Of a DNA stretch of 64,000 nucleotides, positions 13,990 to 61,206 are shown piece after piece. Source of the DNA: Candidatus Omnitrophota bacterium (lineage in GTDB: Bacteria > Omnitrophota > Gorgyraeia > Gygaellales > Profunditerraquicolaceae); contig JAPLMA010000060.1 of assembly GCA_026387255.1 (NCBI GenBank), positions 465-64,464 on the forward strand. The letters run 5' to 3'. The position numbers and the translations under genes are program-made. Under the pieces are notes generated by a model that was given only the letters and a program-made list of their open reading frames with translations, did no database searches and was not told the origin of the DNA. The number at the start of each line of letters is the position of its first letter. Positions within the stretch are counted from its first letter, which is position 1.

Positions 13990-14794
13990 TATTATTTTTA
14001 ATTATTCTTATCGCCTTTAGTTTATCTTACAAAGAGATTTTTTCTGTCCGGCTTAAGCGTCAAGAAGCCAGCTATACGCGTTTGGTAAATGAACTTAAGG
14101 TCTTGCATGAATTTAAAAAAAGTTTAGATTTGGAAAATAATCTCCTCAATAAAAGATTTGATGATACTCTGGCGCTCTATGAGTTAACTAAAGATATTTG
14201 TCAGAGTCTGGATGAGGAAAAAGTATTTACAATTTTTAATAAGAATTTAAAGAAGCATATTGACATTGGTGATTGTCAATACATTAGGGATAGCGCGAAT
14301 TTAGTTAAATATAAAAATTATCTGATTCTGCCTTTAATTCTAGAGGGAAATCAAATCGCTGGCTATCTGGCGGTAGATAGAATTTTAGAAACAGACAAAG
14401 AAAAGTTTGGAATTCTTACGCAACAGTTTTTAATTGGGTTAAGAAGGGCGCTTTTTTATCGCCAGGTTCAGGAATTAACGATTACCGATGCGCTGACTAG
14501 TGTTTATTGTCGAAGGTATTTTTTAGAGCGTTTTAGCGAAGAGCTCAAGCGTTCTAAAAAAAATAAATTATCTTTAGCCTTTTTGATGTTAGATATAGAT
14601 AATTTTAAACAATACAATGATCGTTACGGACATTTAGTTGGGGATGCCATATTGCGTCAGGTTTCTAAAATTATTTCGCTGGCGGTTAGGCAAATCGATT
14701 TTACCGGCCGTTACATTTAATTGATCTGGCAGATCAGGCTTTATATTTAGCCAAGGAAACCGGAAAAAATAAAGTTTGTTTCTCACCAACCTAA
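13977..14794 (+). pseudogene. Second GAF-GGDEF paralogue with an internal deletion/frameshift in the GGDEF domain
   Basis: Frame 0 ends ...DRYGHLVGDAILRQ...DFTGRYI*. The GGDEF C-terminus IDLADQALYLAKETGKNKVCF continues in another frame (14720-14794). About 60 residues, including the GGEEF active site, are missing between RY and LADQALY. Confidence 0.55.
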
Positions 14795-31279: not shown

Positions 31280-31317
31280 AAGTAACCTATTTCATCTTAA
31301 TTTAAATAAGTTTTAAT

Positions 31318-33798: not shown

Positions 33799-33897
33799 GG
33801 TATATAAGGTTTTATGATCTTAGGATAAGAGTCAGTTTTCTGTGCATGAACATGTTTGGAATGTTTTTTTTGAGGGTAAAGAGATATAAGTTTTAGC

Positions 33898-33926
33898 TTG
33901 CCAAAAATACCTAAAAATAGTAATAT
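33898..33926 (+). promoter_or_regulatory. Promoter TTGCCA, 17 nt, TAATAT (copy 2), positioned to drive the tRNA genes
   Basis: Paralogous to 31318-31346. Confidence 0.55.
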
Positions 33927-34024
33927 ATAGTATTATTTTAGAAACGATTTTGCATTAGCAAAACTGTGGACTCAGGGTCAAATTAGGTAACACTCGGAGT
34001 CAAAATTTACTGCGTAAATTTTTA

Positions 34025-34098
34025 GGGCCCATAGCTCAGTCGGTTAGAGCAGTTGACTCATAATCAATTGGTCCGGGGTTCGAGTCCCTGTGGGCCCA
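34025..34098 (+). tRNA. tRNA-Met (anticodon CAT); elongator or Ile2-lysidine type not resolved
   Basis: Folded manually. Acceptor GGGCCCA/TGGGCCC, D-stem GCTC/GAGC, anticodon stem GTTGA/TCAAT, loop CTCATAA, T-arm CGGGG-TTCGAGT-CCCTG, discriminator A. No CCA is encoded. Confidence 0.85.
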
Positions 34099-34227
34099 TT
34101 AATAAGCTTGTTGGAACACAATTAGAACCCCGGAACAAAAAGGGGTGTGGGGAAAAATTTTCCCCACGTATTCGGGGTAACAGTCCCGATGGAACATCGG
34201 GACGCCATAGGGGCAGAGCCCCTTTGG

Positions 34228-34261
34228 CAATTGGTCCGGGGTTCGAGTCCCTGTGGGCCCA
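34228..34261 (+). repeat. Perfect 34-nt copy of the tRNA-Met 3' portion (positions ~40-73)
   Basis: caattggtccggggttcgagtccctgtgggccca is identical to 34065-34098. Confidence 0.9.
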
Positions 34262-34272
34262 GAATATATTAA

Positions 34273-34346
34273 GGGCGATTGGCTCAGTTGGTTAGAGCGC
34301 CACATTCACATTGTGGATGTCAGAGGTTCGAGTCCTCTATCGCCCA
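34273..34346 (+). tRNA. tRNA-Val (anticodon CAC)
   Basis: Acceptor GGGCGAT/ATCGCCC, anticodon stem CCACA/TGTGG, loop TTCACAT, T-arm AGAGG-TTCGAGT-CCTCT, discriminator A. Confidence 0.85.
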
Positions 34347-34456
34347 TTATTAAAAAATAAATGGTTGATTCGAGTTTTGTCACAATTGATTTTAACGGGA
34401 ATAGAGCGTCCGCCACTAAAACGTTGGCGGACGGGCGCCAAAGTATTAGTGGCGCC

Positions 34457-34513
34457 CGCCACATTCACATTGTGGATGTCAGAGGTTCGAGTCCTCTATC
34501 GCCCATTATTAAA
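34457..34513 (+). repeat. Perfect 57-nt copy of the tRNA-Val 3' portion (anticodon arm to 3' end plus 8 nt of flank)
   Basis: Identical to 34298-34354. It creates the spurious ORF 34311-34583. Confidence 0.9.
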
Positions 34514-34521
34514 GGAGAAAA

Positions 34522-35241
34522 TTGGCAAACATAGATTTAAAAACCCAGATTATCAGTTTAGTAAAGTTACAAAAATTGGATAGCGAGATTTACGTTTTAG
34601 GAAATGAAAGAGCAGCTGCTCCACAAGAGATCAAGGCTTTAGAAGTAGCTTTTGAACTTAAAAAACAGGATCTCGTGACTTTGGAAAAGAAATCTTTAGA
34701 TTTACAAATTCAGCGTAAAGAAAAAGAACTCCAACTTGCCACAAATGCTGAAGGGGTAAAAAAACTTACCGGGCAGTTGTTCTCTTTAAAGACGAATAAA
34801 GAATTTCAACTTATGCAACAGCAGATTGCAGATGCTAAGGCCGATGGGGAGGTAATTGAAGAAAAAATTTTAATCTCTTTTGAGGAATCGGATGTAATCA
34901 AAGCGCAGATTGACTTAGAAAACTCGAAATTAAAGGATGGGGAAAAGATTTTTTTGCAGCAAAAGAAAATGATTGAATCTCGCAGCGAAGAAATAGGCGG
35001 CCGGTTAAACCAGCTAGATGCTCAAAGAAAACAGATTATTCCTGAGATCGATCCTAAAATGTTGCAGGAATATGAGAGAATTTTACATAGCCGGGATGGT
35101 TTAGCCATGGTTGCGGTCAAAGATAATTCTTGCGGGGGATGCCATATGTTAGTACCACCCCAGGTAATTAATTTGATTAAAATGTACGAACATATTATAA
35201 CTTGTGAAGTTTGTAACCGCATTTTGTATATTCAAGAATGA
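34522..35241 (+). CDS. Zinc-ribbon coiled-coil protein (COG1579 family)
   Basis: Long coiled-coil plus a C-terminal CGGCHM...CEVCNRILY zinc ribbon. Confidence 0.6.
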   Translation: MANIDLKTQIISLVKLQKLDSEIYVLGNERAAAPQEIKALEVAFELKKQDLVTLEKKSLDLQIQRKEKELQLATNAEGVKKLTGQLFSLKTNKEFQLMQQQIADAKADGEVIEEKILISFEESDVIKAQIDLENSKLKDGEKIFLQQKKMIESRSEEIGGRLNQLDAQRKQIIPEIDPKMLQEYERILHSRDGLAMVAVKDNSCGGCHMLVPPQVINLIKMYEHIITCEVCNRILYIQE

Positions 35242-35654
35242 GTCATTTAGAAATTTACATTGATGGCGCATCCAAGGGTAACCCGGGGCATAGCGGGGTG
35301 GGAATAGTAATTTATCAAGAGGGTTTACGGATTAAGAAGATCTCAAATTATATCGGCACGGCTACGAACAATGTTGCTGAATACACCGCTCTAATTTATG
35401 CACTCGAAGAAGCATTATTATTAAAAGCTAAGAGTTTAAAAATTAATACCGATAGCCAGCTTTTAGCCCGGCAGTTAAATAAGATTTATAAAGTTAAACA
35501 TGCTGGTATTATAAATCTATATAATCGAGCGGTGCATCTTTTAACGGGTTTTGAAAAAGTTTTAATTAAACATATACCTCGAGAAGAGAACAGTTTGGCG
35601 GATAAATTGGCAACTGAAGCAGTTAAAGTAGCATTAGGGAAATCTTTGATATAA
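35238..35654 (+). CDS. rnhA: Ribonuclease HI
   Basis: IYIDGASKGNPG..GVGIV with the RNase H fold and length. Confidence 0.85.
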   Translation: MSHLEIYIDGASKGNPGHSGVGIVIYQEGLRIKKISNYIGTATNNVAEYTALIYALEEALLLKAKSLKINTDSQLLARQLNKIYKVKHAGIINLYNRAVHLLTGFEKVLIKHIPREENSLADKLATEAVKVALGKSLI

Positions 35655-36041
35655 GCAGGCAGAAGGTGGCTGCCCGTTATTAATTTAATAACGGGAGGAA
35701 AGTCCGGGCTCCAGAGGATAACGTAATGGGTAACCCCCATCCCGTATATATAATGTATACGGAGGATTTCCGCCACAAATCGTGGTGGACTCGCCAATTT
35801 TTTTGGCGGGAGAGCCACAGAGACGAGTATCCGCGCAAGTGGAGAGGTGAAACGCGGCAATCTCTACGTGGAGCAAAGTAGAATAGGAGATGAGTGCTGA
35901 TCCAGCGCGTTTCCCGTTTTAGGCGGGAAGAAATCTCGGGTAAACTGCTAAAGTTACCGTGGTAACGCGGGAATTGAGAGGAATAGCCACTAATTGATGT
36001 GCAGGCAGGCATCAAGACAGAACCCGGCTTATTCTGCTTGC
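35655..36041 (+). ncRNA. rnpB: RNase P RNA (bacterial type A)
   Basis: P4 strands GGAAAGUCCGGGCUCC (35695-35710) and ACAGAACCCGGCUUA (36017-36031). P1 is formed by 35655-35664 pairing with 36032-36041. GC is elevated relative to the surroundings. Confidence 0.9.
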
Positions 36042-36081
36042 TTTAAATAAAAAGTAAAATAGGGAAAAATGAGGAGGAGTT

Positions 36082-47362: not shown

Positions 47363-50113
47363 ATGTTAAAGCTATTATTTAAATATAACTGCATAGCGCT
47401 AGTTTCTTTAGCGCTATTATTTTTATCCACGACTTCAGTTTTTGCAGAAAGCCAAGCCGTAGATTATCTTTGTGAATTGGGTAAAAGCTTTTATTCTCTG
47501 GGTAAAGCTGAAGATGCCCTTGCGGAATTTAATAAGGTTCTACTGGTTGATCCTGACAATCAGCTGGCCAAAGAGTATATCAGCAAGATATTTAATGAGA
47601 ATTCATCTGCTCAAGAGCTCACATCCCCATTATCAAAGGAAGAGGCCATGAATCAAGAGTTGGCTAAGTTTAAGCAGCAGCAAGTTGCTACTGCTTATCT
47701 TTATGGTTACCCGGATTTAATACCCAAGGAAAAAGAGGTAGATCGGGGATTAAAGGTTGGCCCGTTAAAAATAACCGGAGAGACACAACTTAGTTTTGGA
47801 ATCACTCCAGGTGATTTTATCTGGAAAAGAGCTAACTTTGATTTAAATGAAAAATATAATAGTTGGCGCCCAACGTCATATGCTGGATTTAACCGTGGCT
47901 TTAATACGTATGACCCCAGAATCTATGATTCGCTAAGCGTAAATGTGGATACGGAGAATAAAGATGGTTTAAATTTTCATACTAATGTTACTGTTGATCC
48001 CTGGAGTTTCACCGGAAAAAGTAATAAAATTACAGTTACTAATCTGGCGGGTACTGATTCTGCTGATTTACAGTTGTATTATTGGTCAAATACCGGGTAT
48101 ACAGTAAATAATAATATATTCTCAGTATTAGGCACTACTTTAAATGTGCCTGAAATAAAGGTAGCTGATGGCCAAACCAATGCTATGGATATATCAAATA
48201 CACCGGCAACAAATGCCAATACATTTAGTATTCCAGCATTGAAGATTTATCGTGAATTTCAACCGGTGCGCGAGTTATGGTTAGATTATACTAATGACCA
48301 GATTAAGTTTCGGGCTTTCCCGATTGGGTATCAGGATCAGGCTTATTCATCAGATGACCCTATGGGCATAACCAATCGTCATATCTGGTGGCAGGATAGT
48401 CCATGGCTGCGAAGGTATCTTCCCGGAACCTATCGTTCTGCTGGTACAGCCGCCCCAAGTTTTACTAAAGGCTACTGGGATGATTCGCTTTCATTTTTAT
48501 CTAAAGATAGTACCGGTAAGTATCTTACCGCGTTAAGAGGTTTTTCGTTTTCTTTTGCTCCGCAAGAGCAAACATCTTTTGATACCACGATTGCCACACC
48601 AAAACATCTTTGGCAGGATTACGGAGTGGTCGATAATCTCATCTCGGCCAGCCGCTTAAAACATTACTTTACGGATAGTTTTATGCTCGGTGGCACGTTT
48701 ACTACGCGCACAGGATTTAAAACTGACCCGCAAAAGCTGGATAGTGAAAACTTTGTCGGTGGCCTAGATTTAGGTTATGAGATCATTGATGGCATGAAGG
48801 CGCAGGCAGAAATTTTGACCTCGCAATCTTTTTACGATATGACTAACTCTGATTATAAAACTAAAGCCCGCGGGAATGCCTATTATTTTGCTTTTATCGG
48901 CCGCTATCCACAGAAAAGTATTATGGATTTAAAATACGGTTACGATGAAATTACTATCGATAAGGATGAAAACTATCTTTTGAAAAGCAAGTTTTATCTA
49001 AGTCGTATGGATAAAGGGTTTGATGCATCATTATCTAACTTTAGCAATACGCGTCAGGATACTGGCTGGAGCAGGCATATTCATTTTCGCCGGCCCATGG
49101 AGTATTATTATCTTGGCTTAACTAAACCTGCGGATGCGGATAAATGGGGACAGCTTAATGCCACGCGTATTGGCGATGGTATTGACGCAGGGAGAAATAC
49201 TTTAGGTTTTCGTTTTGAGACATTTTTAGATGATCGATTATATAATCTCTTCGATCTGCGTAATGTACATGATATAAATGGAAAATTTATTGAAAATGTC
49301 GTACGTGATGAGCTTTCGGTAAGAGTCACTGACAAATTAACGGCTAAAGTTTTAGGTATTTATCAAAAACTTCCCAAGACATTGGGTGGTACTGACCCTT
49401 TTATTTATTCCGGCAATACGGGTGATTATTATTTAAATTCAGCCGTTACTGATGGTCAGGACCCCACCATAAAAACAGGATCTTTTGGCTTAAATTACGA
49501 CTTTTTCGATTGGTTAAGTTTAGATGGTATTTATGAACGTACTAATGATTATTCTTTAGGCTATGATAATTTTCCGCGCAATGTCTTAAGAAATGATTCT
49601 ACTTTAAATAGTGTTTATTATCAAAATGATCTGGCTTATCGTTATGTAAACCCGTTTCTCTACCAACAAGAGAATTTCCCTCAAGCGCCATATGAGTTTT
49701 ATAATATTTTTAAAATGGGGTTAAGGGTTTCTCCTCTAGAGAATATGGATATCTACTTAGATTATACACGTAACGAATTCCAGGCTGCAAGTTTAAACTC
49801 GGATAATATGAACCATGTGGGCCTGGAGATGACTTATATGCCGACTCCAAAATTCGGTATGTTGCTTAAGTATATATATTCACGTTGCCAGGATGTTGAC
49901 CGGTTAGTAAGTGGAATCACAGAGCCTGTAGGCCACCACAACTTTTACGGTGAATTCAGGTATCTTCCTTCCAAGGATGACGAAATTATTCTGCAATACG
50001 GAGAAGGCAACTCTAGTGCCATCGGCAATATGAATTTAGATCCCTATGGTGGCAGCATGCTTACTTTAGATACACAGCATATTATCCGCGCTTATTACCG
50101 CCGCAGATTTTAA
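47363..50113 (+). CDS. Large outer-membrane protein (signal peptide, TPR-like N-terminus, beta-barrel-like body, C-terminal Phe)
   Basis: Cleavable signal peptide. The beta-strand-rich Y/G/T/N composition and the terminal ...YYRRRF are typical of OM beta-barrels. 916 aa; no family assigned. Confidence 0.45.
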   Translation: MLKLLFKYNCIALVSLALLFLSTTSVFAESQAVDYLCELGKSFYSLGKAEDALAEFNKVLLVDPDNQLAKEYISKIFNENSSAQELTSPLSKEEAMNQELAKFKQQQVATAYLYGYPDLIPKEKEVDRGLKVGPLKITGETQLSFGITPGDFIWKRANFDLNEKYNSWRPTSYAGFNRGFNTYDPRIYDSLSVNVDTENKDGLNFHTNVTVDPWSFTGKSNKITVTNLAGTDSADLQLYYWSNTGYTVNNNIFSVLGTTLNVPEIKVADGQTNAMDISNTPATNANTFSIPALKIYREFQPVRELWLDYTNDQIKFRAFPIGYQDQAYSSDDPMGITNRHIWWQDSPWLRRYLPGTYRSAGTAAPSFTKGYWDDSLSFLSKDSTGKYLTALRGFSFSFAPQEQTSFDTTIATPKHLWQDYGVVDNLISASRLKHYFTDSFMLGGTFTTRTGFKTDPQKLDSENFVGGLDLGYEIIDGMKAQAEILTSQSFYDMTNSDYKTKARGNAYYFAFIGRYPQKSIMDLKYGYDEITIDKDENYLLKSKFYLSRMDKGFDASLSNFSNTRQDTGWSRHIHFRRPMEYYYLGLTKPADADKWGQLNATRIGDGIDAGRNTLGFRFETFLDDRLYNLFDLRNVHDINGKFIENVVRDELSVRVTDKLTAKVLGIYQKLPKTLGGTDPFIYSGNTGDYYLNSAVTDGQDPTIKTGSFGLNYDFFDWLSLDGIYERTNDYSLGYDNFPRNVLRNDSTLNSVYYQNDLAYRYVNPFLYQQENFPQAPYEFYNIFKMGLRVSPLENMDIYLDYTRNEFQAASLNSDNMNHVGLEMTYMPTPKFGMLLKYIYSRCQDVDRLVSGITEPVGHHNFYGEFRYLPSKDDEIILQYGEGNSSAIGNMNLDPYGGSMLTLDTQHIIRAYYRRRF

Positions 50114-50127
50114 TACTAAAAAATAAT

Positions 50128-50204
50128 CCGGGTAGTTAGTAGCCAGTAGTTAGTATATAGGGTTATCCTAAATGCTATCTACTAACTACTGGCTACCCGT
50201 TTTT
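50128..50204. terminator. Bidirectional rho-independent terminator between convergent genes
   Basis: Long stem ccgggtag..tagttagta / tactaactactggctacccg, flanked by an A-run on the left and a T-run on the right. Confidence 0.7.
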
Positions 50205-53200
50205 TTATTTGAGGAATATGTCAATCTTTTCAACTTGGCGCGATCTTACTTTTTCGGCTAGAAAAGGTGGAATAGTTGCAGAATTAATTTCTGTTGGGCA
50301 GTGATCTTCGAAAATTACAATTTTAGCTATTTTTACTGCGTTCCTGCCAAAAGTATTTTTTCTCTCAGGATTATAATATGTCACAAGAATACGGCTCAAG
50401 AAATTAAATGAATATTTACCATTTTTAGTAAACATCCATCCGGCTAAATTCGGTTTAAACTCTAAATTTAGCTTGCCATGATTATCTAAAACAAACGGAT
50501 TAATGCCAATATTCATGACTAACCAGATATGCAAGAATTCTGCGGTTGATCCAGAGAGCCGAGCGACAAAACCATTTCCATGTAGATTTTTGTCTATAAA
50601 AGCACTACTAACTAGGAATGAAGAGTTCTCCAGTATACTGCGGCCGTATCTTTGTGGGTTTTGAAAAGGGATAAGCACGTTTTTAAATTCTGCATAGAAC
50701 TCTTCGATTAAGCCGGTTTTTAATAACTCTAAAATATATTTATACTCCATATGCAGCCAGATAGATTCATTTTCTAACCATCCAGGGGTAAATACCCGGC
50801 ATCTGCCTATTTCTTCCGGCATACTGTTAAGTGAAGCAGTTACCTTATACATCTTTAGTTTTTTATCAAAAAGCTCACTTTTCTTGGTTGCCTGGTAAAG
50901 TTGAGCAGCTTGTTTTAATTCTTGTGATAACCTTAAGGCGTGCATCTGTCCCGCTAAGAATAGAGGAGCAGGCCTTTGAGTAAACTTCTTAGGCTTTATA
51001 TAATGATCTTTTACTAAATCATATTGGGTAACTTCATTAATAAAATATGAGTAGTATACGCCTTGGGCTTGATTAAAAGCCTTAGCTAAACCGGCTTCAA
51101 CCTTTTTTAAAGCTGCATCTAAAAAAGAAGTTAGATCAGTAATCGGAATATTTATTGAATTCCCAGAGAAGCCTAAGCGCGTATTATGCCGATATTCTTC
51201 TTTGGCGTTGTTACTTCTATCCCAATAACTAAAAGTTTCTTCCGCGAATAGATTAGCCAATTCTTTGATAAATTTAGCTACTTCTTCAGCAATCTCGATC
51301 TGATTAGCTTGAGAGTTCTCTAAAGCTCTTCTTATCATTTTTAACAAACGTTTTAATTCAAACGTTTCGCAACTTGATGAACCAAAAAGAGCAGGTAAAC
51401 CATTAAGCGAATCAAACCAGTTAGGTTTATTCGCCTCCATTTCAATACCCACGCCAAAAGGATCCAGTGAACCCAGTTTATTTGCTGCTAAACACAAAAG
51501 TTTAGCCATTAAAGTAGTATAATAAATTTCACCAGATCCATATAGTGTGCGTAGAAGGTGGGGATTATTTAAACGTTTAGCTAAGAGCTCCTTTTTTTCA
51601 GCATCCGCGATGAGAGAGTGTAACTGCCGAGGCTTGCCATTGTAAAGAAGGTATTTTTCACTACGCGGCCTGACTAATTCAATATTATCGTAAAAAGAGA
51701 AAACCTTTTTGTCAAAGAAAAGCTCGTGGAGTTTTTCTGGGTAAAGATCAAGATAACGCTCAATTAAATCTAAGTTATAAGTCCAGTGGTCCGTCCAAAA
51801 TCCTTCGGCATGTTCAGCTTCTTGAGATTTCGCCGAAGAGGTAAGGATAATATCCAGAAGCTCATCATAAGGGGCTTGGACTGTAATTTTATTTTCTTCA
51901 ATAAAAAAGATAAGCTCACCAGGGGTAAAAGGTTTTTTAAAAAAATGCCCAAGCTTCTCGATGGCTTCTTTTTTAAGCATCCCACCTAAGAGCTTAATTA
52001 AGTCAGCGTTATTATTTAAAAGAAAGTTTTCGCCTTTAATTACCAGTGGATTAAAACCATCGGACTGGATTAAGTTCATAAAGAAAACTATATTTTCATC
52101 TTTAATCTCCGGATTAAACCAAACATCATTACGTCGATTTTGGTTGGTATCCCTGTAGTTACCGTTACCTTGAGAGAAATACGTAGGAGCTAATACAAAT
52201 TTATTGTAATCTCTTTCCAAATCACCGTGTTTACGGGAATAGAGATAAAAAACAGTTTTAGCGGATTCATCTTTCCCCGCCTCTGGCGGGATCCCGCCAG
52301 AGGGTTTAAGAGATGGGCGGGAAAAAACTTCTGGATAGCCACCGCGCATAATGTTATCTAAATAAGTTTGGCTAGTATAACAGTCCAATGCTTTGGAACT
52401 GCTGGTAGTAGCGATATCATTTTTAAGTTTAGCGATAAGCTCATTGTTTTGGGCAAACTTTTTCTGGATATAACCGAATTTCGTAATCTTCTTGACCGAT
52501 TGATTTAAAGTCTTACTATCACGAGCTTGGCCGATTACCGAATAAAAAGTTTGTGCAGTTCGTGGGAGTAGTTTTAAATTTAATAGCAGTAATGCACTGG
52601 GAGTTTTGCTTCTGGTTATCTGTAAAGAAGGATAAGTAAAATTACTCTTTGCTAGGAATAAAGAGGGGTAAGAAAAATCAGTGACTGCGCCAAAAACAGT
52701 CTCTGGATCTACAATCGGCCGGATGAGTTTTGTGGTTGTGCCGTTAAAATTGAAACTTAGATAAAAATTGCCTCCATCAATATGCACAACTTCCGGCCGA
52801 TCAATTGGATCAACTTCCAATTTATAGAAGGGGATATCGTTATCTAGGTTATCAATACTCATCCAGGCCTCAATAGTGCGGCCAAGTTTTTTTAAGAAAA
52901 AATTATGGGTACCAAAAGGGACAATCTGAGGTAGGCCATCAATAAGCTGTATGTCTTTTAGCTTATTACCGGTATTCTCAATACTTACTGTGCGGCTCAA
53001 ACCAGCATAGGTATCATTAGGAATATTAAAATATTCAATCCTTATTTTTATCCCTAATGTAAAATTTTGTTCCTCTAGGATCAGCGCGCTTGAGCTCATG
53101 CGCATAGAATTAAGTGTATGGTATTTTAAGTTAGTGTAACCATTATGAAATGGCTCATAGTAGATGGAGGTATCTGGAGATTTTATTTTTATAAAAGTAC

Positions 53201-53462
53201 GAAAACCATGACTACCGACAAACTGCCAGGCTTTATTCGCGGGAAAAAATTCTAAAATAGCATGGTCTTTATCCTTGATACCAAAACTAGAAATACACTG
53301 GCCACGATTAACGTAGAAAACCCACATGGGAATCCCGTATTTACCAGCAATGCCGGGGAAAAAATTAGCAAAAGGCTTAGCGTAATTATAATTCTCAATT
53401 ACAAATTCACCTTGTTGATTTAAATAATATTTGGCTTTCAATTGATTAGTTTTTGTTTTCAT
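50205..53462 (-). CDS. Large (1085 aa) putative glycan phosphorylase / (alpha/alpha)6-barrel glycoside hydrolase-like protein (GH94/GH36-superfamily-like)
   Basis: Size and a GNYRDTNQN motif reminiscent of the RDxxQD region of cellobiose-phosphorylase-type enzymes. The assignment is tentative. Confidence 0.35.
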   Translation of the reverse strand: MKTKTNQLKAKYYLNQQGEFVIENYNYAKPFANFFPGIAGKYGIPMWVFYVNRGQCISSFGIKDKDHAILEFFPANKAWQFVGSHGFRTFIKIKSPDTSIYYEPFHNGYTNLKYHTLNSMRMSSSALILEEQNFTLGIKIRIEYFNIPNDTYAGLSRTVSIENTGNKLKDIQLIDGLPQIVPFGTHNFFLKKLGRTIEAWMSIDNLDNDIPFYKLEVDPIDRPEVVHIDGGNFYLSFNFNGTTTKLIRPIVDPETVFGAVTDFSYPSLFLAKSNFTYPSLQITRSKTPSALLLLNLKLLPRTAQTFYSVIGQARDSKTLNQSVKKITKFGYIQKKFAQNNELIAKLKNDIATTSSSKALDCYTSQTYLDNIMRGGYPEVFSRPSLKPSGGIPPEAGKDESAKTVFYLYSRKHGDLERDYNKFVLAPTYFSQGNGNYRDTNQNRRNDVWFNPEIKDENIVFFMNLIQSDGFNPLVIKGENFLLNNNADLIKLLGGMLKKEAIEKLGHFFKKPFTPGELIFFIEENKITVQAPYDELLDIILTSSAKSQEAEHAEGFWTDHWTYNLDLIERYLDLYPEKLHELFFDKKVFSFYDNIELVRPRSEKYLLYNGKPRQLHSLIADAEKKELLAKRLNNPHLLRTLYGSGEIYYTTLMAKLLCLAANKLGSLDPFGVGIEMEANKPNWFDSLNGLPALFGSSSCETFELKRLLKMIRRALENSQANQIEIAEEVAKFIKELANLFAEETFSYWDRSNNAKEEYRHNTRLGFSGNSINIPITDLTSFLDAALKKVEAGLAKAFNQAQGVYYSYFINEVTQYDLVKDHYIKPKKFTQRPAPLFLAGQMHALRLSQELKQAAQLYQATKKSELFDKKLKMYKVTASLNSMPEEIGRCRVFTPGWLENESIWLHMEYKYILELLKTGLIEEFYAEFKNVLIPFQNPQRYGRSILENSSFLVSSAFIDKNLHGNGFVARLSGSTAEFLHIWLVMNIGINPFVLDNHGKLNLEFKPNLAGWMFTKNGKYSFNFLSRILVTYYNPERKNTFGRNAVKIAKIVIFEDHCPTEINSATIPPFLAEKVRSRQVEKIDIFLK

Positions 53463-53572: not shown

Positions 53573-53600
53573 GTAGGGGTCAGGCATGCCTGACCCCTAC
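53573..53600. repeat. 28-nt perfect palindrome gtaggggtcaggcatgcctgacccctac (REP-like element, intergenic copy)
   Basis: Seen directly. It is preceded by a direct repeat cagctaaacacatcg present twice (53537-53551 and 53559-53573). Confidence 0.85.
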
Positions 53601-53634
53601 AGGGATAATTCCATCCCCTTAGCCTAAGCGCTTA

Positions 53635-53974: not shown

Positions 53975-55432
53975 ATGGAATTAAATCAACTCACTGCTCA
54001 CGAACTATTGGAAAAACTTAAGGCCCAGCAGACGACTCCTGAGGCCATTCTGGACTCGCTTTATGCGCGTATACAGAAAATCGAACCTCAGGTTAAGGCG
54101 TATGTTAGAGGGCAGGCATGCCTGCCCTCTACATCATCACAGGCAGACCTGCCTTCTGTAGGGGACAGGCATGCCTGTCCCCTACGGGGGTTACCGATTA
54201 CGATCAAAGATAATATCTGTACTGAAGGATTACCTACTGAATGTTGTTCAAAAATCCTCCAGGGTTTTCGTCCACCGTATGATGCTACGGTAATTGATAA
54301 ATTAAAAAAAAGTGGTGCCGTAATTTTTCCCTTAAAAGCTAACATGGATGAATTTGCTTTTGGTTCATCTACAGAAAATTCCTATTTTGGGCCAACGCGT
54401 AATCCCTGGAATCTAGATTATGTTCCCGGGGGTTCTTCTGGAGGATCTGCTGCTGCCGTAGCTAGCGATGAAGCGATTTGGGCTTTAGGAAGCGATACCG
54501 GCGGTTCAATACGCCAGCCAGCATCTTTTTGCGGAGTGGTCGGATTAAAACCGACTTATGGACGTGTTTCGCGTTTTGGACTCATTGCTTTTGCTTCCAG
54601 CCTTGACCAGATTGGGCCGATCACTAAGGATGTCCAAGATGCGGCAATTTTAACTGGGCTGATCAGCGGATATGATCCTGGGGATTCAACTTCAGTAAAT
54701 CAGGATGTTCCAGATTACACTAAAAGCTTAACCGGCGATATCAAGAATTTAAAGATTGGGATACCTAAAGAGTACTTTATTGCGGGGATGGACGAGGAAG
54801 TTAAAACGATTATCCAAGAGGCGGTAAATAAACTTAAAGATTTAGGCGCACTTGCTAATTCGGTATCCTTGCCGCATACAGAATACGCTGTACCGGTTTA
54901 CTACATTATCGCTACGGCTGAAGCCAGCTCAAATTTAGCCCGGTTTGACGGAGTACAATATGGATATCGGGCGAGTTCGGATAATTTAATCCAAATGTAT
55001 AAATTAACTCGCGCGCAAGGTTTCGGCCAAGAAGCTAAACGTAGGATCATCTTAGGAACTTTTGTTCTATCGCATGGATATTATGACGCGTATTATTTAC
55101 GCGCTTTAAAGGTGCGCACACTGATTAAGCAGGATTTTGATAAAGTTTTTGGCGAATTTGATTGTATCGTTGCTCCAACCTCTCCCACCAGTGCCTTTAA
55201 AATTGGCGAAAGGGCCCAGGATCCGCTCTCGATGTATCTTTCTGATATCTATACGATATCCGCAAATTTGGCGGGGATACCGGCGATATCTATTCCTTGC
55301 GGTTTTACAAAAAAAGGTTTGCCCGTCGGTTTACAGATTATGGCTAAACCGTTTAATGAAGCGATGCTTTTTAGAGTAGCGCATACCTTTGAACAAAATA
55401 CAGATTGGCATAAATTTAAAACCAAACTATGA
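53975..55432 (+). CDS. gatA: Glu-tRNA(Gln) amidotransferase subunit A
   Basis: Amidase signature GGSSGGSAAAVA and GSDTGGSIRQPA; 485 aa. Confidence 0.95.
   Translation: MELNQLTAHELLEKLKAQQTTPEAILDSLYARIQKIEPQVKAYVRGQACLPSTSSQADLPSVGDRHACPLRGLPITIKDNICTEGLPTECCSKILQGFRPPYDATVIDKLKKSGAVIFPLKANMDEFAFGSSTENSYFGPTRNPWNLDYVPGGSSGGSAAAVASDEAIWALGSDTGGSIRQPASFCGVVGLKPTYGRVSRFGLIAFASSLDQIGPITKDVQDAAILTGLISGYDPGDSTSVNQDVPDYTKSLTGDIKNLKIGIPKEYFIAGMDEEVKTIIQEAVNKLKDLGALANSVSLPHTEYAVPVYYIIATAEASSNLARFDGVQYGYRASSDNLIQMYKLTRAQGFGQEAKRRIILGTFVLSHGYYDAYYLRALKVRTLIKQDFDKVFGEFDCIVAPTSPTSAFKIGERAQDPLSMYLSDIYTISANLAGIPAISIPCGFTKKGLPVGLQIMAKPFNEAMLFRVAHTFEQNTDWHKFKTKL
54107..54185 (+). repeat. Two perfect palindromes (24 nt at 54107-54130 and 28 nt at 54158-54185) inside gatA, translated in-frame
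   Basis: agagggcaggcatgcctgccctct and gtaggggacaggcatgcctgtcccctac, the same family as 53573-53600. They encode ...RGQACLPSTSSQADLPSVGDRHACPLRG... Confidence 0.85.
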
Positions 55433-56856
55433 AATATCAAACCGTTATCGGCCTAGAAGTTCATCTGCAGCTCAATACTAAAACTAAAGCATTTTGTGGT
55501 TGCTCGACGGATTTCGGAAAAGCCCCTAATTCTAATGTTTGTCCGGTCTGCCTGGGGTTTCCCGGTTCACTGCCAGTTTATAATCGGCAGGCTCTAAATT
55601 CTGCGATTAAGTTAGCTTTGGCTTTTAACTGTCAAATTCAAGAACATACTAAATTTGATCGTAAAAATTATTTTTATCCGGATTTGCCAAAAAATTACCA
55701 GATTTCACAATTTGATTTACCATTATCGCGAAACGGATATCTGGATATTTATACTCAAAACTTACCTAAGCGTATCGGGATTACCCGGGTGCATTTAGAG
55801 GAAGATGCTGGTAAGCTCATTCACGAAACAGGGTGTAGCCTAGTAGATTTTAATCGTACCGGAATTCCCCTCCTGGAAATTGTCAGCGAGCCGGATTTAA
55901 ACAGCCCGAGCGAGGCCTTTGATTACCTAAATAGTTTAAAAAGTATTATTGAATATCTAGATGTATCAGATTGCGATATGGAGAAAGGTTCTTTGCGTTG
56001 TGATGCCAATATTTCTTTACGGCTTTTAGGGGCTAAAGAACTAGGCGTTAAAACCGAACTAAAAAATATGAATTCTTTTAAAGGGGTAAAAGATGCTTTA
56101 ACTTTTGAGGTAGAGCGCCAAACCCAACTCTTGGAAACAAACCAAGAGCTGGTTCAAGAGACCCGGCTTTGGGATGTAGAAAAGGCAGTGACGGTAGTAA
56201 TGCGCACCAAAGAAGGGGCAAAAGATTATCGATATTTTCCGGATCCGGATTTAACCGTTTTTATTATTGAGGAATCCATGATTGCTCAGATAAAAGCGCA
56301 GTTACCAGAGCTACCTCAGGAAAAAATGCGACGTTTCGTTAAAGAGTACGGATTAACGGAATATGATGCAAAGATTTTAGTGAGCTCTAAAAATGATGCG
56401 CAGTTTGCCGAAAATTGTATTCAGAATTACCCGGGTGAAGATAAGAAAGAAATAGTTAATTGGTTAATTGGCCCGTTATTATCCGAAGCTAATTTACGAA
56501 AAGTAAAATTACATGCGTTAAATCTTAATACAAATGAATTGATTAGCTTGATTGGTTTTGTGCAACGACAGGAAATTTCCTATCTTTGCGCTAAGAACGT
56601 ATTAAGCCAGTTGATTGATACTGGCAAAACTACGCAAGATTTAATTCAGGAAGGTAATTTGCAACAGATATCTAATGCTGATGCACTGTCTGAAGTAATT
56701 GAAACAGTTATCCATGAAAATGCAAAATCGGTGAGTGATTTTAAAGCGGGCAAGACTAACGCACTAATGTATCTGGTTGGACAGGTAATGAAGAAAAGTT
56801 CTGGCAAAGCTAATCCTAAAGTGGTCGGAGATTTAGTAAGGCGGAGGCTGAGTTAA
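55429..56856 (+). CDS. gatB: Glu-tRNA(Gln) amidotransferase subunit B
   Basis: GLEVHLQL N-terminus and a GatB/YqeY C-terminal domain. Confidence 0.95.
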   Translation: MKYQTVIGLEVHLQLNTKTKAFCGCSTDFGKAPNSNVCPVCLGFPGSLPVYNRQALNSAIKLALAFNCQIQEHTKFDRKNYFYPDLPKNYQISQFDLPLSRNGYLDIYTQNLPKRIGITRVHLEEDAGKLIHETGCSLVDFNRTGIPLLEIVSEPDLNSPSEAFDYLNSLKSIIEYLDVSDCDMEKGSLRCDANISLRLLGAKELGVKTELKNMNSFKGVKDALTFEVERQTQLLETNQELVQETRLWDVEKAVTVVMRTKEGAKDYRYFPDPDLTVFIIEESMIAQIKAQLPELPQEKMRRFVKEYGLTEYDAKILVSSKNDAQFAENCIQNYPGEDKKEIVNWLIGPLLSEANLRKVKLHALNLNTNELISLIGFVQRQEISYLCAKNVLSQLIDTGKTTQDLIQEGNLQQISNADALSEVIETVIHENAKSVSDFKAGKTNALMYLVGQVMKKSSGKANPKVVGDLVRRRLS

Positions 56857-58130
56857 TGCGTAAAAAAATATTTTTTATTTCGTTATTCATTGTGTTTGCA
56901 TGTATCGGTGTCCGGTTGGGTTTTTCCGAAAATAAAAAGAAGACCAACGATGAATTGTATAAGCAGATTGAGATATTCTCCGCTACCCTGGCAATTATCC
57001 AAAAAGAATATGTGCTTGATACAAAAACTAAAGATTTAATCTATGGGGCATTAAAAGGCATGCTGGCTTCACTTGATGCGCATAGTCAGTTTATGGATCC
57101 GGAAACCTATGAGGAATTAAAAGTAAATACTCAGGGTAAGTTCGGCGGCCTGGGCATTGAAATTACGATTAAAGATGGTTTGTTAACCGTGATTACGCCA
57201 ATCCAAGATACACCGGCCTGGAAAGCAGGGATCAAAGCCAATGATCATATTGTGAAAATTAATGATTCGCTTACCCGCGAGATGCCTCTTACTGATGCGG
57301 TTAAAAAAATGCGGGGTAAGCCTGGTGAAGCCGTTAATCTTACCATCTTAAGGGATACGGAAAAAAAACTCTTAGATTTTAGAATCACTAGAGAGATGAT
57401 CAAGATTACCGATATAAAATATGTGCGTATTCTGGAAAATGGAATTGGCTATATTCGGTTAAGTGAATTTCGTGAAAATACCTTCCTGGAATTAAATAAC
57501 GCACTAGGTATTCTTTCTAAACAAGGAATGAAAGCATTGATTATCGATTTGCGTAATAATCCTGGCGGACTCCTGGATGTTGCGGTCAAGGTAACCGGAA
57601 AGTTCTTGGGGCCGAATAAACTGATTGCCTATACGGCGGGCAGGCACAAAGATCAAAATTTGAAATTTTTCTCCGAAGCTAAAAATACAAACTTAGAGTT
57701 GCCACTAGCGATTTTGATTAATGAAGGCTCGGCTTCCGGAAGCGAGATTGTTGCCGGAGCTTTGCAGGATTATAAACGTGCCATAATTATCGGGAAGAAG
57801 TCTTTTGGTAAAGGTTCTGTGCAAACAGTTATTCCCCTGGAGGATGGGGCAGCTTTGCGTTTAACAACCAGCCATTATTTTACTCCATCCGGTAAGATAA
57901 TCCAAGGTAACGGGGTTACTCCGGATATCCTAGTAGAAGAGAATAAACTCCCAAATATCCAGGCTGACCAAGTAACAAACAAAAAATCTGATGAGATATT
58001 TGACCAAATCCAGAATGATCAGCCAGTTAATAAATCAGCAAAAGATACCTTTGACTATAAAGCCGATACGCAACTTATGCGCGCCGTAGATTCTTTAATC
58101 GCAATTCAAATATATAAACAAGTCAAGTAA
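56856..58130 (+). CDS. ctpA: Carboxyl-terminal processing protease (S41)
   Basis: PDZ domain and an S41 catalytic region (GSASGSEI, KSFGKGSVQ). Confidence 0.85.
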   Translation: MRKKIFFISLFIVFACIGVRLGFSENKKKTNDELYKQIEIFSATLAIIQKEYVLDTKTKDLIYGALKGMLASLDAHSQFMDPETYEELKVNTQGKFGGLGIEITIKDGLLTVITPIQDTPAWKAGIKANDHIVKINDSLTREMPLTDAVKKMRGKPGEAVNLTILRDTEKKLLDFRITREMIKITDIKYVRILENGIGYIRLSEFRENTFLELNNALGILSKQGMKALIIDLRNNPGGLLDVAVKVTGKFLGPNKLIAYTAGRHKDQNLKFFSEAKNTNLELPLAILINEGSASGSEIVAGALQDYKRAIIIGKKSFGKGSVQTVIPLEDGAALRLTTSHYFTPSGKIIQGNGVTPDILVEENKLPNIQADQVTNKKSDEIFDQIQNDQPVNKSAKDTFDYKADTQLMRAVDSLIAIQIYKQVK

Positions 58131-58170
58131 TTCAAATATTAATAAATATTCTTAAACTTTTAATAGATAA

Positions 58171-58941
58171 ATGAAAAACAAAACAAGTACGATCCTGATG
58201 ATTATTTTATTTTTGCTTGTATTTATTGCGCTCATTCTGATTCCGCTGCATAAAAAAGTACCCGTCAAAAAACCACCACTAGTGCGTGGACGAATTGCTA
58301 TTGTAATTGATGATTGGGGGTATAGCTTAAATAATCTTTTGATTATTGAGCAAATAAAACAACCCTTAACTTGCGCGATTTTACCCAACTTGAAAAACTC
58401 AAATCCGGTTATGCAAAAATTAAATAATTTAGGTTTTGAAATAATTTTACATTTACCGATGGAGCCAAAAGAAAAATATAATTTAGAGAACAATACGATT
58501 ACTTCCGGGATGGATGCTGAGGCAATCGATAAAATTTTTGCCAAAGACCTATTAAACATTACACTTGCTAAAGGCATATCAAATCATATGGGTTCGCGGA
58601 TTACTGAAAACATAAAATCCAGTACTCTGGTGATGATAGAAGCAAAAAAACGCAAACTATACTTTTTCGATAGTTTTGTAACTAAACAATCTGTCTGCCC
58701 TGCTTTAGCTAGTAAAATAAATATTAGATTTGCCAAAAGGGATGTGTTTTTGGATAATCAGAATGATTTTGAATACATAAAAAAACAACTGACAATATTA
58801 AAGAATTTGGCCAGAAAAAAAGGTACCGCCATCGGCATCGGACATGACCGTAAAAATACCTTACTTGTATTGAAGGAAATGCTCGGGCAGTTAGAGAAAG
58901 AGGGTTATAAATTTGTTTTTCTTTCACAGGTGGTACGATGA
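58171..58941 (+). CDS. Divergent polysaccharide deacetylase family protein (YibQ-like)
   Basis: Single N-terminal TM plus IAIVIDDWGYS..HLPMEP..NHMGS motifs. Confidence 0.6.
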   Translation: MKNKTSTILMIILFLLVFIALILIPLHKKVPVKKPPLVRGRIAIVIDDWGYSLNNLLIIEQIKQPLTCAILPNLKNSNPVMQKLNNLGFEIILHLPMEPKEKYNLENNTITSGMDAEAIDKIFAKDLLNITLAKGISNHMGSRITENIKSSTLVMIEAKKRKLYFFDSFVTKQSVCPALASKINIRFAKRDVFLDNQNDFEYIKKQLTILKNLARKKGTAIGIGHDRKNTLLVLKEMLGQLEKEGYKFVFLSQVVR

Positions 58942-59951: not shown

Positions 59952-60398
59952 ATGCCTACGGATTTACAGATGATCATACGTTTATTGTTAACTTTAGTTT
60001 TAAGCGGCTTAATTGGCCTGGAAAGGCAGGTACACCGCAGAGATGCCGGCCTACGTACACATATATTAGTCGCTTTGGGTAGTTGCCTTATCATGTTGAC
60101 ATCTTTATATGTTTTTGATATATATAAAGATCAGGTGGCCTTAGATCCCGTGCGTATTGCGGCCGGAGTAGTTACGGGTATTGGTTTTCTTGGCGCCGGT
60201 ACAATCATTCGGGAATCTGATGGAGTGCGGGGCTTAACTACAGCCGCTAGCCTCTGGGTGGTTGCGGGGATTGGTTTAGCGGTGGGAGTGGGTTTCAATA
60301 AAATTGCAATTTATACCACGATTCTGGTTTTAATTGTTTTACATTTTTTACGTTATGTAGAAGCGCCACTTTCAAAGGAGGGTAAACATGGCCTTTAA
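59952..60398 (+). CDS. MgtC/SapB-family membrane protein
   Basis: 148 aa with four TM helices and the MgtC N-domain pattern. Confidence 0.65.
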   Translation: MPTDLQMIIRLLLTLVLSGLIGLERQVHRRDAGLRTHILVALGSCLIMLTSLYVFDIYKDQVALDPVRIAAGVVTGIGFLGAGTIIRESDGVRGLTTAASLWVVAGIGLAVGVGFNKIAIYTTILVLIVLHFLRYVEAPLSKEGKHGL

Positions 60399-60891
60399 AA
60401 AGAATCTGGAGGAAAAAACCTTGGATGTCGATGCTGCAATGCAGGGGAGTTTAACCTTTAAGGATCCGGTTAATTTGCGGATTAATGGAAAATTTGAAGG
60501 CAATCTGGATACCCGGGGTAATTTAACTATCGGCACAACGGCCGTAATCAACGCAGATATTATCGGAGATAATATTATTATTGGCGGCCGGGTCAAGGGC
60601 AAGATTACTGCTAAAGAGAGACTGACGCTTCTTCCGCAAGCGATAGTCCAGGGAAATATTTATCCGGCAAAACTTAATATTGCTGAAGGCGCAGTTTTTG
60701 AAGGACAGTGCACAATGTTACATGACTTTCTTAATTCTGAACAGCTGGCCAAATACCTGGAGGTGGAATTAAGCTCGATCATGGAATGGGCTAATTCGGG
60801 AAAAGTACCGGCAAGCAAAGAAAATGACGCTTGGAAATTTGAACGTAAAGCAATAGATTCCTGGGTAGCTGCAGGTAAAATCGCAAAATAA
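60388..60891 (+). CDS. Bactofilin-domain protein with C-terminal excisionase-type HTH
   Basis: Beta-helical bactofilin repeats (NGKFEGNL..GNLTIG..INADIIGDNIIIGGRVKGKI) followed by ...EQLAKYLEVELSSIMEWANSGKVPASK..WKFERKAIDSW, an HTH_17-like domain. Confidence 0.55.
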   Translation: MAFKKNLEEKTLDVDAAMQGSLTFKDPVNLRINGKFEGNLDTRGNLTIGTTAVINADIIGDNIIIGGRVKGKITAKERLTLLPQAIVQGNIYPAKLNIAEGAVFEGQCTMLHDFLNSEQLAKYLEVELSSIMEWANSGKVPASKENDAWKFERKAIDSWVAAGKIAK

Positions 60892-60894
60892 AAA

Positions 60895-61206
60895 ATGACT
60901 GAAGAAAAAATGCTCACGGTTAGAGATGTGTCAATTATATTGGGGGTTTCGGAAAAAGATGTTTTAGATCTAACTGAAAACGGAACGATTCCGGGTTATA
61001 AGGTTGGTGGCGTATATTTAAGATTTAAGAAAGAACAGGTTGAGCAATACAAAAATAAACAAGGGCTCCTGGAGCCTAAAGCACCTAAGAAAGAAGCTGA
61101 GAGTTTAGCAAGCAGGATTGGCGATTTCTTTTATTTCAATGATTTTTATATTTTTGCCCTAATCTTTGTAGTCCTTTTGGGATACCTGGTTTACCGAGGC
61201 CTATAA
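60895..61206 (+). CDS. Excisionase-family HTH protein with C-terminal TM helix
   Basis: LTVRDVSIILGVSEKDVLDLTENGTIPGYKVGGVYLRFKKEQV followed by a hydrophobic tail FYFNDFYIFALIFVVLLGYLVY. Confidence 0.45.
   Translation: MTEEKMLTVRDVSIILGVSEKDVLDLTENGTIPGYKVGGVYLRFKKEQVEQYKNKQGLLEPKAPKKEAESLASRIGDFFYFNDFYIFALIFVVLLGYLVYRGL

Follow-up and report, generated by a model that had tools for sequence, protein, structure and literature searches.

Introduction

Can a bactofilin polymer bind DNA directly, and does it do so together with a partner held in the membrane? The question is raised by two adjacent genes on a stretch of 64,000 nt from a Candidatus Omnitrophota bacterium (GenBank assembly GCA_026387255.1, contig JAPLMA010000060.1, positions 465 to 64,464), analysed here as a whole and referred to as the window. 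Gene A (60388–60891) encodes a protein of 167 amino acids (aa) in which a bactofilin is fused to a C-terminal winged helix-turn-helix (wHTH) domain, and gene B (60895–61206) encodes a 103-aa wHTH protein that ends in a transmembrane helix. An earlier note, made from the sequence alone, had described these open reading frames (ORFs) as a bactofilin fused to an excisionase-type helix-turn-helix (HTH) domain, followed by a membrane-anchored HTH paralogue, and had suggested a DNA-positioning or segregation-like device; both ORFs exist as it claimed.

Bactofilins are widespread scaffolds whose known links to DNA are indirect, running through PadC and ParABS in Myxococcus and through BacR in Bacillus. 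The view that the architecture of A is non-standard for a bactofilin stands: a literature search found no paper on a bactofilin–HTH or bactofilin–excisionase fusion, nor on bactofilins in Omnitrophota, and named database entries are almost only from this phylum. The fusion is already present in precomputed database annotations ('polymer-forming cytoskeletal protein', 'excisionase family DNA binding protein'). Here we show that A and B constitute a conserved two-gene unit, and we propose by analogy, with a probability of roughly 40%, that they form an Omnitrophota-specific module coupling a membrane-associated bactofilin polymer to the ligand of the wHTH domains, most likely the chromosome, and thus a membrane-bound nucleoid tether.

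Distribution and linkage of the two genes

Searches against protein clusters at 90% identity (E ≤ 0.001) returned 1791 homologues of A; for B, 787 homologues were recovered. The best 120 of the 1791 are all 167–169 aa long, at least 84% identical to A and equipped with both Pfam domains. In a library clustered at 50% identity, approximately 20–25 representatives span the full fusion at 25–55% identity, and a profile built from the distant fusions recovered 1088 more sequences at E ≤ 1e-10. Named homologues of A, of B and of the distant-fusion profile are all labelled Omnitrophota/Omnitrophica, with the exception of one 'Candidatus Pacebacteria' record (P0096); among named homologues, the pair is restricted to this phylum.

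Gene order was compared in 94 loci (L001–L094), comprising 80 loci fetched from 119 GTDB species-representative genomes with a close relative of A, together with more distant ones. Most of the 80 close loci carry Omnitrophota or Omnitrophica titles; 13 are labelled 'uncultured Planctomycetales', two 'bacterium' and one 'Pacebacteria', which we read as mis-assignments because all 80 share the gene order of the window and high identity. B lies directly 3' of A in 79 of the 80, and in the remaining one (L066) the contig ends 88 bp past the A match. The close clade has the syntenic block CtpA–polysaccharide deacetylase–TsaD–MgtC–A–B–LarB–CdhD, and this synteny taken alone could reflect shared ancestry. 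Decisive evidence for linkage comes from the more distant lineages, eight of ten of which keep the pair while its flanks change. GreA/ACPS lies 3' of A–B in L081 and L082, and SPOR and TPR–PDZ genes lie 5' of it in L084 and L085; the order is MgtC–A–B–LarB in L089, L090 and L092, A–B–PDZ–HAMP–PolA in L091 and L094, and TsaD–A–B–PolA, without MgtC, in L093. Two lineages have no HTH partner immediately 3' of A, namely L087 and a cluster at 25% identity formed by L083 and L088. Collectively, these counts establish obligate pairing of A and B and bear out the co-occurrence across genomes that the earlier note had wished to see checked.

Conservation within the block differs markedly between genes. 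Averaged over 50 complete loci, A shares 82% identity with its counterpart in the window, MgtC (the second most conserved gene of the block) 79.5%, LarB 75%, CdhD 71%, TsaD 68%, CtpA 67.5%, B 63% and the deacetylase 60%; in 34 of these loci, A ranks first in conservation. A is under strong purifying selection, and its position as the most conserved gene of the block is consistent with a structural housekeeping role.

B starts 3 nt past the A stop codon and in the same frame (TAA AAA between the two). Stop read-through or a natural A–B fusion was considered and rejected, the spacing elsewhere ranging from −4 to 158 nt; a 271-aa A–B 'fusion' in L059 is the product of a scaffold gap filled by a run of N.

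Domain architecture and predicted structure

Pfam assigns aa 12–108 of A to Bactofilin (PF04519; E = 3.6e-25, with 88.5 bits against a cutoff of 27.9 and a match to 95 of the 98 positions of the profile) and aa 114–162 to HTH_17 (PF12728; 35.5 bits, E = 1.2e-8, cutoff 27), and the same HTH_17 profile matches aa 6–56 of B (38.0 bits, E = 1.9e-9). With AlphaFold and Foldseek in agreement on the core, A is a true member of the bactofilin family, and both proteins are true HTH_17 members, as the domain search proposed in the earlier note was meant to establish. The NCBIfam 'excise' domain model TIGR01764 (cutoff 28.8) is passed by B with 36.9 bits, whereas A remains below it at 18.1.

An AlphaFold2 model of A, built with the family alignment, has a mean predicted local distance difference test (pLDDT) score of 85.8. 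Residues 1–10 are disordered (pLDDT < 50), and a β-helix spans approximately residues 11–110, being β-strand throughout with pLDDT 89–98 over residues 21–110. The C-terminal part consists of helices 117–124 and 128–137, a β-hairpin at 143–152 and a helix at 153–161, the α-α-β-β-α topology of a wHTH that is present in the models of both proteins. Foldseek returned bactofilin structures 2n3d, 6rib and 6ria as the top matches of the core (target-normalised template-modelling scores of 0.73–0.78), and the family profile of A matches BacA 2n3d (3.6e-11) and the Thermus thermophilus bactofilin 6ria (6e-9). The C-terminal domain superposes on BldC, RdfS, RacA, Xis and MerR regulators with root-mean-square deviations (RMSD) of 1.1–2.4 Å; for the HTHs of both proteins taken together, the values against BldC, RdfS, RacA and Xis span 1.0–2.5 Å. 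Single-sequence searches of the PDB with either HTH gave no match, and HTH-only profiles were needed; that of A recovered RacA best (1.8e-4), followed by BldC (1.9e-4) and Xis (1.8e-3).

Two features of A bear on its probable behaviour as a bactofilin. Its residue F104 aligns with F105 of the T. thermophilus protein (TtBac), the residue mutated in the F105R crystal structure. Bactofilins polymerise without nucleotides through end-to-end hydrophobic contacts in which this position figures, and across the A family it is occupied by L, F or another hydrophobic residue; the retained core fold and this residue together suggest that A polymerises. The clade consensus of the N-terminus is MAFKK[KN][LMI]EEK, and distant fusions always begin with M, a hydrophobic residue and a K/R cluster. 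This tail, which the earlier note had not remarked on, resembles the bactofilin membrane-targeting consensus MFSKKKK (PMC12448750) and is a putative membrane-targeting sequence (MTS). A Shine-Dalgarno-like AAGGAGG stands just 5' of the A start codon.

The corresponding model of B has a mean pLDDT of 75.9. Its wHTH comprises a strand at 6–8, helices 9–16 and 20–28, a β-segment at 35–45 and a helix at 46–56; pLDDT is lowest in the linker, at about 57–70, falling below 50 at 66–68, and two further helices follow (71–81 and 83–100), the second with pLDDT of about 89–94. The best Foldseek matches of the B HTH are the RacA–DNA complex 5i44 (25% identity) and BldC (RMSD 1.0 Å). A full-length family profile of B gave no match in the PDB. 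The top B-profile matches, to designed repeat proteins (dTor, CAP repeat), were discounted as low-complexity helix matches, and a faint NCBIfam match of B to MamR (E = 0.057) was treated as fold-level noise.

A single C-terminal transmembrane helix in B, as read earlier from the sequence, is borne out by helix 83–100 of the model and by conserved Kyte–Doolittle maxima (19 residues) of about 2.0–3.0 in nearly all complete, correctly identified orthologues. Only about three residues follow this helix; B is therefore tail-anchored, with everything functional in the cytoplasm. Mean pairwise identity is 67% for the HTH and 44% for the transmembrane helix (linker and motif, Table 1), and the most conserved segment of B is not the HTH but a juxtamembrane motif, DF[FL]YFNDFY, another feature that the earlier note had not described. 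The motif is helical in the model, lying in helix 71–81 and the beginning of helix 83–100, and is kept in distant lineages (L081, L089–L094) in which A is only about 45–55% identical to that of the window. We regard it as a candidate bactofilin-docking or interfacial motif.

The two HTH domains are paralogous at the profile level only. Their family profiles align with 98.2% probability (hhalign; E = 4e-14, 14% identity), whereas BLASTP finds no similarity between them, so that the description as HTHs of the same type holds for profiles and not for pairwise sequence comparison. The term excisionase-type likewise fits the fold, but nothing in the genomic context suggests recombination.

Table 1. 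Genes and protein segments at the A–B locus, in window coordinates (ORFs of A and B include the stop codon)
Feature	Coordinates	Strand	Evidence
ORF A, bactofilin–wHTH fusion, 167 aa	60388..60891	+	Pfam Bactofilin and HTH_17; AlphaFold
A N-terminal tail, aa 1–11, MAFKKNLEEKT, putative MTS	60388..60420	+	disordered in model; conserved in clade; MTS resemblance
A bactofilin β-helical core, aa 12–110	60421..60717	+	Pfam; family profile; Foldseek
A short conserved linker and C-terminal MerR/excisionase-type wHTH, aa 111–167	60718..60888	+	Pfam HTH_17; AlphaFold; Foldseek; HTH-only profile
ORF B, tail-anchored wHTH protein, 103 aa	60895..61206	+	Pfam HTH_17; TIGR01764
B wHTH domain, aa 1–56	60895..61062	+	model; Foldseek; hhalign to A HTH
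B variable disordered linker, aa 57–76	61063..61122	+	19% mean pairwise identity; low pLDDT
B juxtamembrane aromatic motif, aa 77–86, DFFYFNDFYI	61123..61152	+	93% mean pairwise identity
B C-terminal transmembrane helix, aa 87–103	61153..61203	+	hydropathy; model helix 83–100
MgtC/SapB-family membrane protein gene, 148 aa, membrane domain only	59952..60398	+	Pfam MgtC, E = 2.7e-41

Potential for DNA binding by the wHTH domains

The closest relatives of both HTHs in sequence and in structure are DNA-bound proteins, namely RacA, BldC, Xis, RdfS and MerR regulators. In BldC, T27, T29 and K33 contact phosphate, W31, K26 and R30 contact bases, and H46, R47 and R48 act from the wing (PMC5859096). 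The R30A substitution abolishes DNA binding by BldC, and RacA uses the equivalent arginine (PMC5859096). Part of this surface is retained in A and B. The wing position of BldC R41 corresponds to K144 in A (98% basic) and K36 in B (100% basic), and that of R48 to K150 in A (80% basic) and R43 in B (100% basic). The base-contacting K26 is matched by K21 in B, where it is kept, and by the variable S129 in A; W31 is matched by the invariant W134 in A and by L26 in B.

Several observations weigh against DNA binding of the kind seen in these relatives. The position of the essential R30 is taken by E133 in A, acidic in 96% of 98 sequences, and by D25 in the main clade of B, while the phosphate-contacting K33 is replaced by N136 and E28, respectively. 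HMMER alignments show a K-T-V-x-R-W motif common to helix 2 of RacA and of BldC; A retains only its Trp and B only its Lys. The exposed helix-2 residues 128, 130 and 132 rank with the most variable of A, which argues against a conserved specific DNA site. In each of the nine lineages examined, the net charge of the A HTH lies between −1 and −4, and the main clade of B has a strongly acidic helix 2, a trait less marked in distant lineages; charge is suggestive rather than decisive, because the aligned wHTH segment of RacA is near neutral too, by hand count. CbpM, a MerR-fold protein solved with the CbpA J-domain and not with DNA, is also among the structural matches, and no centromere-like cluster emerged when the window was scanned for repeats.

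With basic wing residues kept but the base-reading Arg replaced by an acidic residue, DNA binding by the two domains is therefore plausible though unproven. Judged from their residues, sequence-specific recognition in the manner of BldC or RacA is unlikely, whereas binding mediated by the DNA backbone or the wing and strengthened by multivalency is plausible. The positioning or segregation device suggested in the earlier note thus retains its plausibility by analogy with RacA, BldC and Xis and with the logic of RocS, RacA and Par, but is weakened by the Glu and Asp found in place of the base-reading Arg.

A proposed nucleoid–membrane tether

The features above can be combined into a model in which A, like other bactofilins, would polymerise through its β-helical core against the cytoplasmic membrane's inner face, to which its MFSKKKK-like N-terminal tail would hold it, with a C-terminal wHTH extending from each subunit into the cytoplasm. 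Bactofilin filaments lack polarity (PMC12448750), so that the wHTH domains of A would be paired at the junctions between subunit C-termini (C–C junctions). B would be tail-anchored in the same membrane with its wHTH facing the cytoplasm, and its almost invariant DFFYFNDFY motif would probably dock on or beside the A polymer. A parallel is offered by the bitopic bactofilin client PbpC, which uses a short cytoplasmic peptide (PMC12448750) and to which the proposed contact of the B motif with the polymer may be likened. As next to nothing of B lies in the periplasm, it could carry no cargo other than a ligand of the cytoplasmic HTH or of the juxtamembrane motif. Together, A and B would attach the nucleoid to the membrane in a multivalent manner and with low specificity, and would thereby serve to organise, position or segregate the chromosome. 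In this proposal polymerisation, the contact between A and B, membrane binding by the A N-terminus, DNA binding and the cellular role are all inferred.

A more ambitious form of the proposal would make A–B a self-contained chromosome-anchoring or partitioning system of Omnitrophota, built from a nucleotide-independent bactofilin filament with its own DNA-binding heads at the C–C junctions and from a tail-anchored wHTH protein; A would then be the first bactofilin-class polymer to bind DNA directly. We consider this stronger form doubtful.

Alternative explanations

The loss of the base-reading Arg in both proteins, the net acidity of the A HTH and the acidic helix 2 of B would also fit a different role, in which the wHTHs are degenerate and serve as protein–protein adaptors. 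The A and B domains would then associate head to tail as in BldC, or the A wHTH would bind the DFFYFNDFY motif of B; B would be an integral-membrane anchor or nucleator, and the output would be the organisation of envelope or peptidoglycan enzymes. Conserved charges are complementary between the basic wing of A (K139, K144, K150, R153, K155) and helix 2 of B (E20, D22, D25, E28), head-to-tail contacts of the BldC type use the equivalents of the invariant L124, V126 and W134 of A, and CbpM exemplifies a MerR fold that serves protein binding. Typical clients of bactofilins, PbpC among them, are bitopic membrane proteins that have a short conserved peptide in the cytoplasm and are often the products of adjoining genes; envelope genes (CtpA, polysaccharide deacetylase, SPOR and PDZ proteins) recur near the pair. 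However, virtually all characterised HTH_17/MerR-type wHTHs bind DNA, and the wing basic residues with which BldC contacts DNA are conserved in A and B. The MTS-like N-terminus of A makes a separate anchor seem redundant, B lacks a periplasmic domain with which to influence the envelope, and a mirror-tree comparison of the A and B HTHs gave r = 0.68 against 0.39–0.75 for other domain pairs, which is no excess of co-variation and carries no discriminating signal. We judge this adaptor role, the main rival of the tether, unlikely, although it is to be taken seriously.

A transcriptional switch of the BacR type appears improbable. In it, polymer sequestration or membrane tethering would control the access of the HTHs to DNA and so link the state of the envelope to gene expression, as in Bacillus subtilis, where the HTH protein BacR, encoded beside bactofilin genes, is held at the membrane by BacE/F with reduced DNA binding and is freed on cell-wall stress (PMC13649987); the closest structural relatives of the A and B domains, BldC and MerR proteins, are themselves transcription factors. 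Covalent fusion to a polymer and a permanent transmembrane anchor, however, leave no obvious release mechanism, and the recognition-helix surface of A varies between orthologues in spite of the high conservation of the whole protein. With flanking genes that differ from lineage to lineage, the pair has no conserved regulatory target beside it, and neither protein matches DUF4004. The reading of the locus as a leftover of a mobile element or defence system, with an excisionase (recombination directionality factor) or MADS-type HTH fused to a bactofilin, is effectively refuted. It could draw on sub-threshold matches to MAD1 (NCBIfam 38.1 and 35.4 bits against a cutoff of 80; PADLOC E = 4e-5 and 7.5e-3), on weak matches to PHROG excisionase families and on the TIGR01764 match of B. 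These MAD1 and excisionase matches are generic to the fold, PADLOC reported weak mad1 matches only and no companion MADS genes, and a search of 2.9 million viral contigs found no relative. The context is stable and housekeeping in the window and the sampled Omnitrophota loci, no integrase or other defence gene occurs in any neighbourhood examined, and A is under strong purifying selection; excisionase and defence readings were rejected on these grounds. The probability left beside the nucleoid tether and these alternatives falls to functions that we have not anticipated.

Comparison with known systems

Canonical bactofilins, such as Caulobacter crescentus BacA and the T. thermophilus protein, share with A the β-helical core and the hydrophobic F105 position, and the N-terminal tail of A resembles the MFSKKKK consensus. 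Their C-terminal tails are short and disordered, whereas A carries a folded wHTH on a conserved linker of six residues, and its gene is locked to a tail-anchored HTH partner. A parallel is Myxococcus xanthus PadC, which is encoded next to bacNOP, just 3' of the bactofilins, bound the nucleoid in Escherichia coli and docks on the extension that BacP carries at its C-terminus (PMC5703909). The BacNOP–PadC–ParABS system resembles A–B in that a DNA-associated protein, encoded directly 3', connects a bactofilin scaffold with the organisation of the chromosome. PadC, however, has a ParB-like nuclease domain and works through ParA/ParB, whereas the putative DNA-binding domain of A is of the MerR/Xis type and fused to the bactofilin itself; the 3' partner in A–B is membrane-anchored, no link of the pair to ParA/ParB is known, and Pfam found no ParBc match in A, B or their immediate neighbours.

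RocS of Streptococcus pneumoniae, RacA with DivIVA in B. subtilis and Par of pSK1 combine a MerR-type wHTH with oligomerisation, and RocS and RacA add a membrane or pole anchor. The A–B architecture is analogous, with a wHTH, a bactofilin and an MTS-like tail in A and a wHTH and a transmembrane helix in B, and follows the same logic without whole-protein homology. Those proteins oligomerise by a coiled coil, whereas A would do so by its bactofilin β-helix, and B has a true transmembrane helix rather than an amphipathic one. RocS must oligomerise before it binds the membrane (PMC11500499).

The BacR (YhbD) system with BacE and BacF is similar in that an HTH protein is coupled genetically and physically to bactofilins at the membrane. 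BacR differs as a separate, soluble DUF4004 protein that shuttles between membrane and nucleoid, and Pfam gave no DUF4004 match in A or B at E ≤ 0.1. BldC, Xis and RdfS have the same fold as the A and B wHTHs (RMSD 1.0–1.7 Å), with sequence similarity at the family level, and oligomerise head to tail on DNA. They are, in contrast, free-standing small proteins with basic DNA-binding surfaces, whereas the A and B domains are neutral to acidic, have no Arg30 equivalent and are attached to a polymer or membrane. A cognate integrase, together with which excisionases are encoded in mobile elements, occurs in none of the neighbourhoods listed, the neighbours being housekeeping genes in the window and the 94 loci. 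A and B fall outside the RacA/RocS, PadC, BacR and excisionase systems, but may work like RacA and RocS.

Genomic neighbourhood and other features of the window

The window holds no second bactofilin and no other HTH of the A/B type, and otherwise consists of housekeeping genes, almost all on one strand; this context (GatA/B, CtpA, TsaD, LarB, PolA) is stable across the sampled Omnitrophota loci. The MgtC gene, which runs 11 nt into the start of A, lies 5' of A in 77 of the 80 close loci and also in L089–L092 and L094, and its frequent overlap with the A start codon suggests translational coupling. It is absent from L081, L084, L087 and L093, and of these L081, L084 and L093 still keep A–B, making it a frequent but non-obligatory neighbour.

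Genes related to the envelope stand near the pair in several lineages. In the window, CtpA and the polysaccharide deacetylase (56856–58941) are found 5' of A–B, as in most lineages; SPOR and TPR–PDZ genes stand beside it in L084 (3289–4946), and a PDZ protein and a HAMP protein are encoded 3' of it in L091 (5000–5956) and L094 (4936–5892). This recurrence of PDZ, SPOR, S41-peptidase and deacetylase neighbours may represent historical synteny or hint at an envelope-related role.

The most divergent bactofilin–HTH_17 fusions, at about 25% identity, belong to cluster P0344/P0401/P0409 and lie on the metagenome contigs L083 (1–6850) and L088 (1–5807). Genes around them form a cluster of another kind and code for an actin homologue of the Volactin type (PF25216), an ATPase of 465 aa (ParA/CbiA-like, with an AMPK1_CBM domain) and several unknown proteins; L083 also holds a MamF_MmsF-family membrane protein. 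The gene after the fusion in L083 encodes a hydrophobic protein without an HTH, and the L088 contig ends 240 bp past the fusion. A role in the cytoskeleton or in organelle positioning is possible for this cluster.

Elsewhere in the window, a GAF–GGDEF diguanylate cyclase gene (12653–14720, plus strand) is split into overlapping ORFs (12653–13657 and 13654–13989) by a perfect 53-nt tandem duplication (13564–13616 and 13617–13669); as 53 is not a multiple of three, the duplication shifts the reading frame. A third ORF (13977–14720) encodes another partial GGDEF domain, and the gene is either a pseudogene or an artefact of the metagenome assembly. A GC-rich perfect palindrome, GTAGGGG(T/A)CAGGCATGCCTG(A/T)CCCCTAC, is present in three copies (53573–53604, 54105–54136 and 54158–54189), one intergenic before a GatA-like amidase gene and two within the 5' part of the amidase ORF (53975–55432); it looks like a repetitive extragenic palindromic (REP)-like or hairpin element, or the start codon of the amidase may be mis-set. 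Two large ORFs, one of 916 aa (47363–50113, plus strand) and one of 1085 aa (50205–53462, minus strand), have no Pfam match at E ≤ 1e-5, and the latter is the only sizeable minus-strand gene of the window. Between their convergent ends, a 22-nt hairpin with 95% complementarity (50139–50196) is probably a bidirectional terminator.

An island of RNA genes (33886–36047) comprises tRNA-Met (34025–34098), a duplicated 34-nt 3' half of it (34228–34261), two copies of tRNA-Val(CAC) (34273–34346 and 34433–34505) inside a repeat some 160 nt long, and class A RNase P RNA (35653–36047). Two copies of a 68-nt sequence, at 31306 and 33886, are 85% identical and possibly represent a shared promoter region.

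Implications for Omnitrophota cell biology

Across the sampled Omnitrophota, A is more conserved than the essential gene TsaD. To our knowledge, this phylum has no cultured representatives, and two small proteins of 167 and 103 aa offer a rare experimental handle on its cell biology. If the wHTH domains do not bind DNA, the pair would illustrate the re-use of MerR-fold domains as cytoskeletal adaptors. Should A bind DNA instead, membrane, cytoskeleton and chromosome would be directly coupled by a polymer, in cells that are very small and uncultivated.

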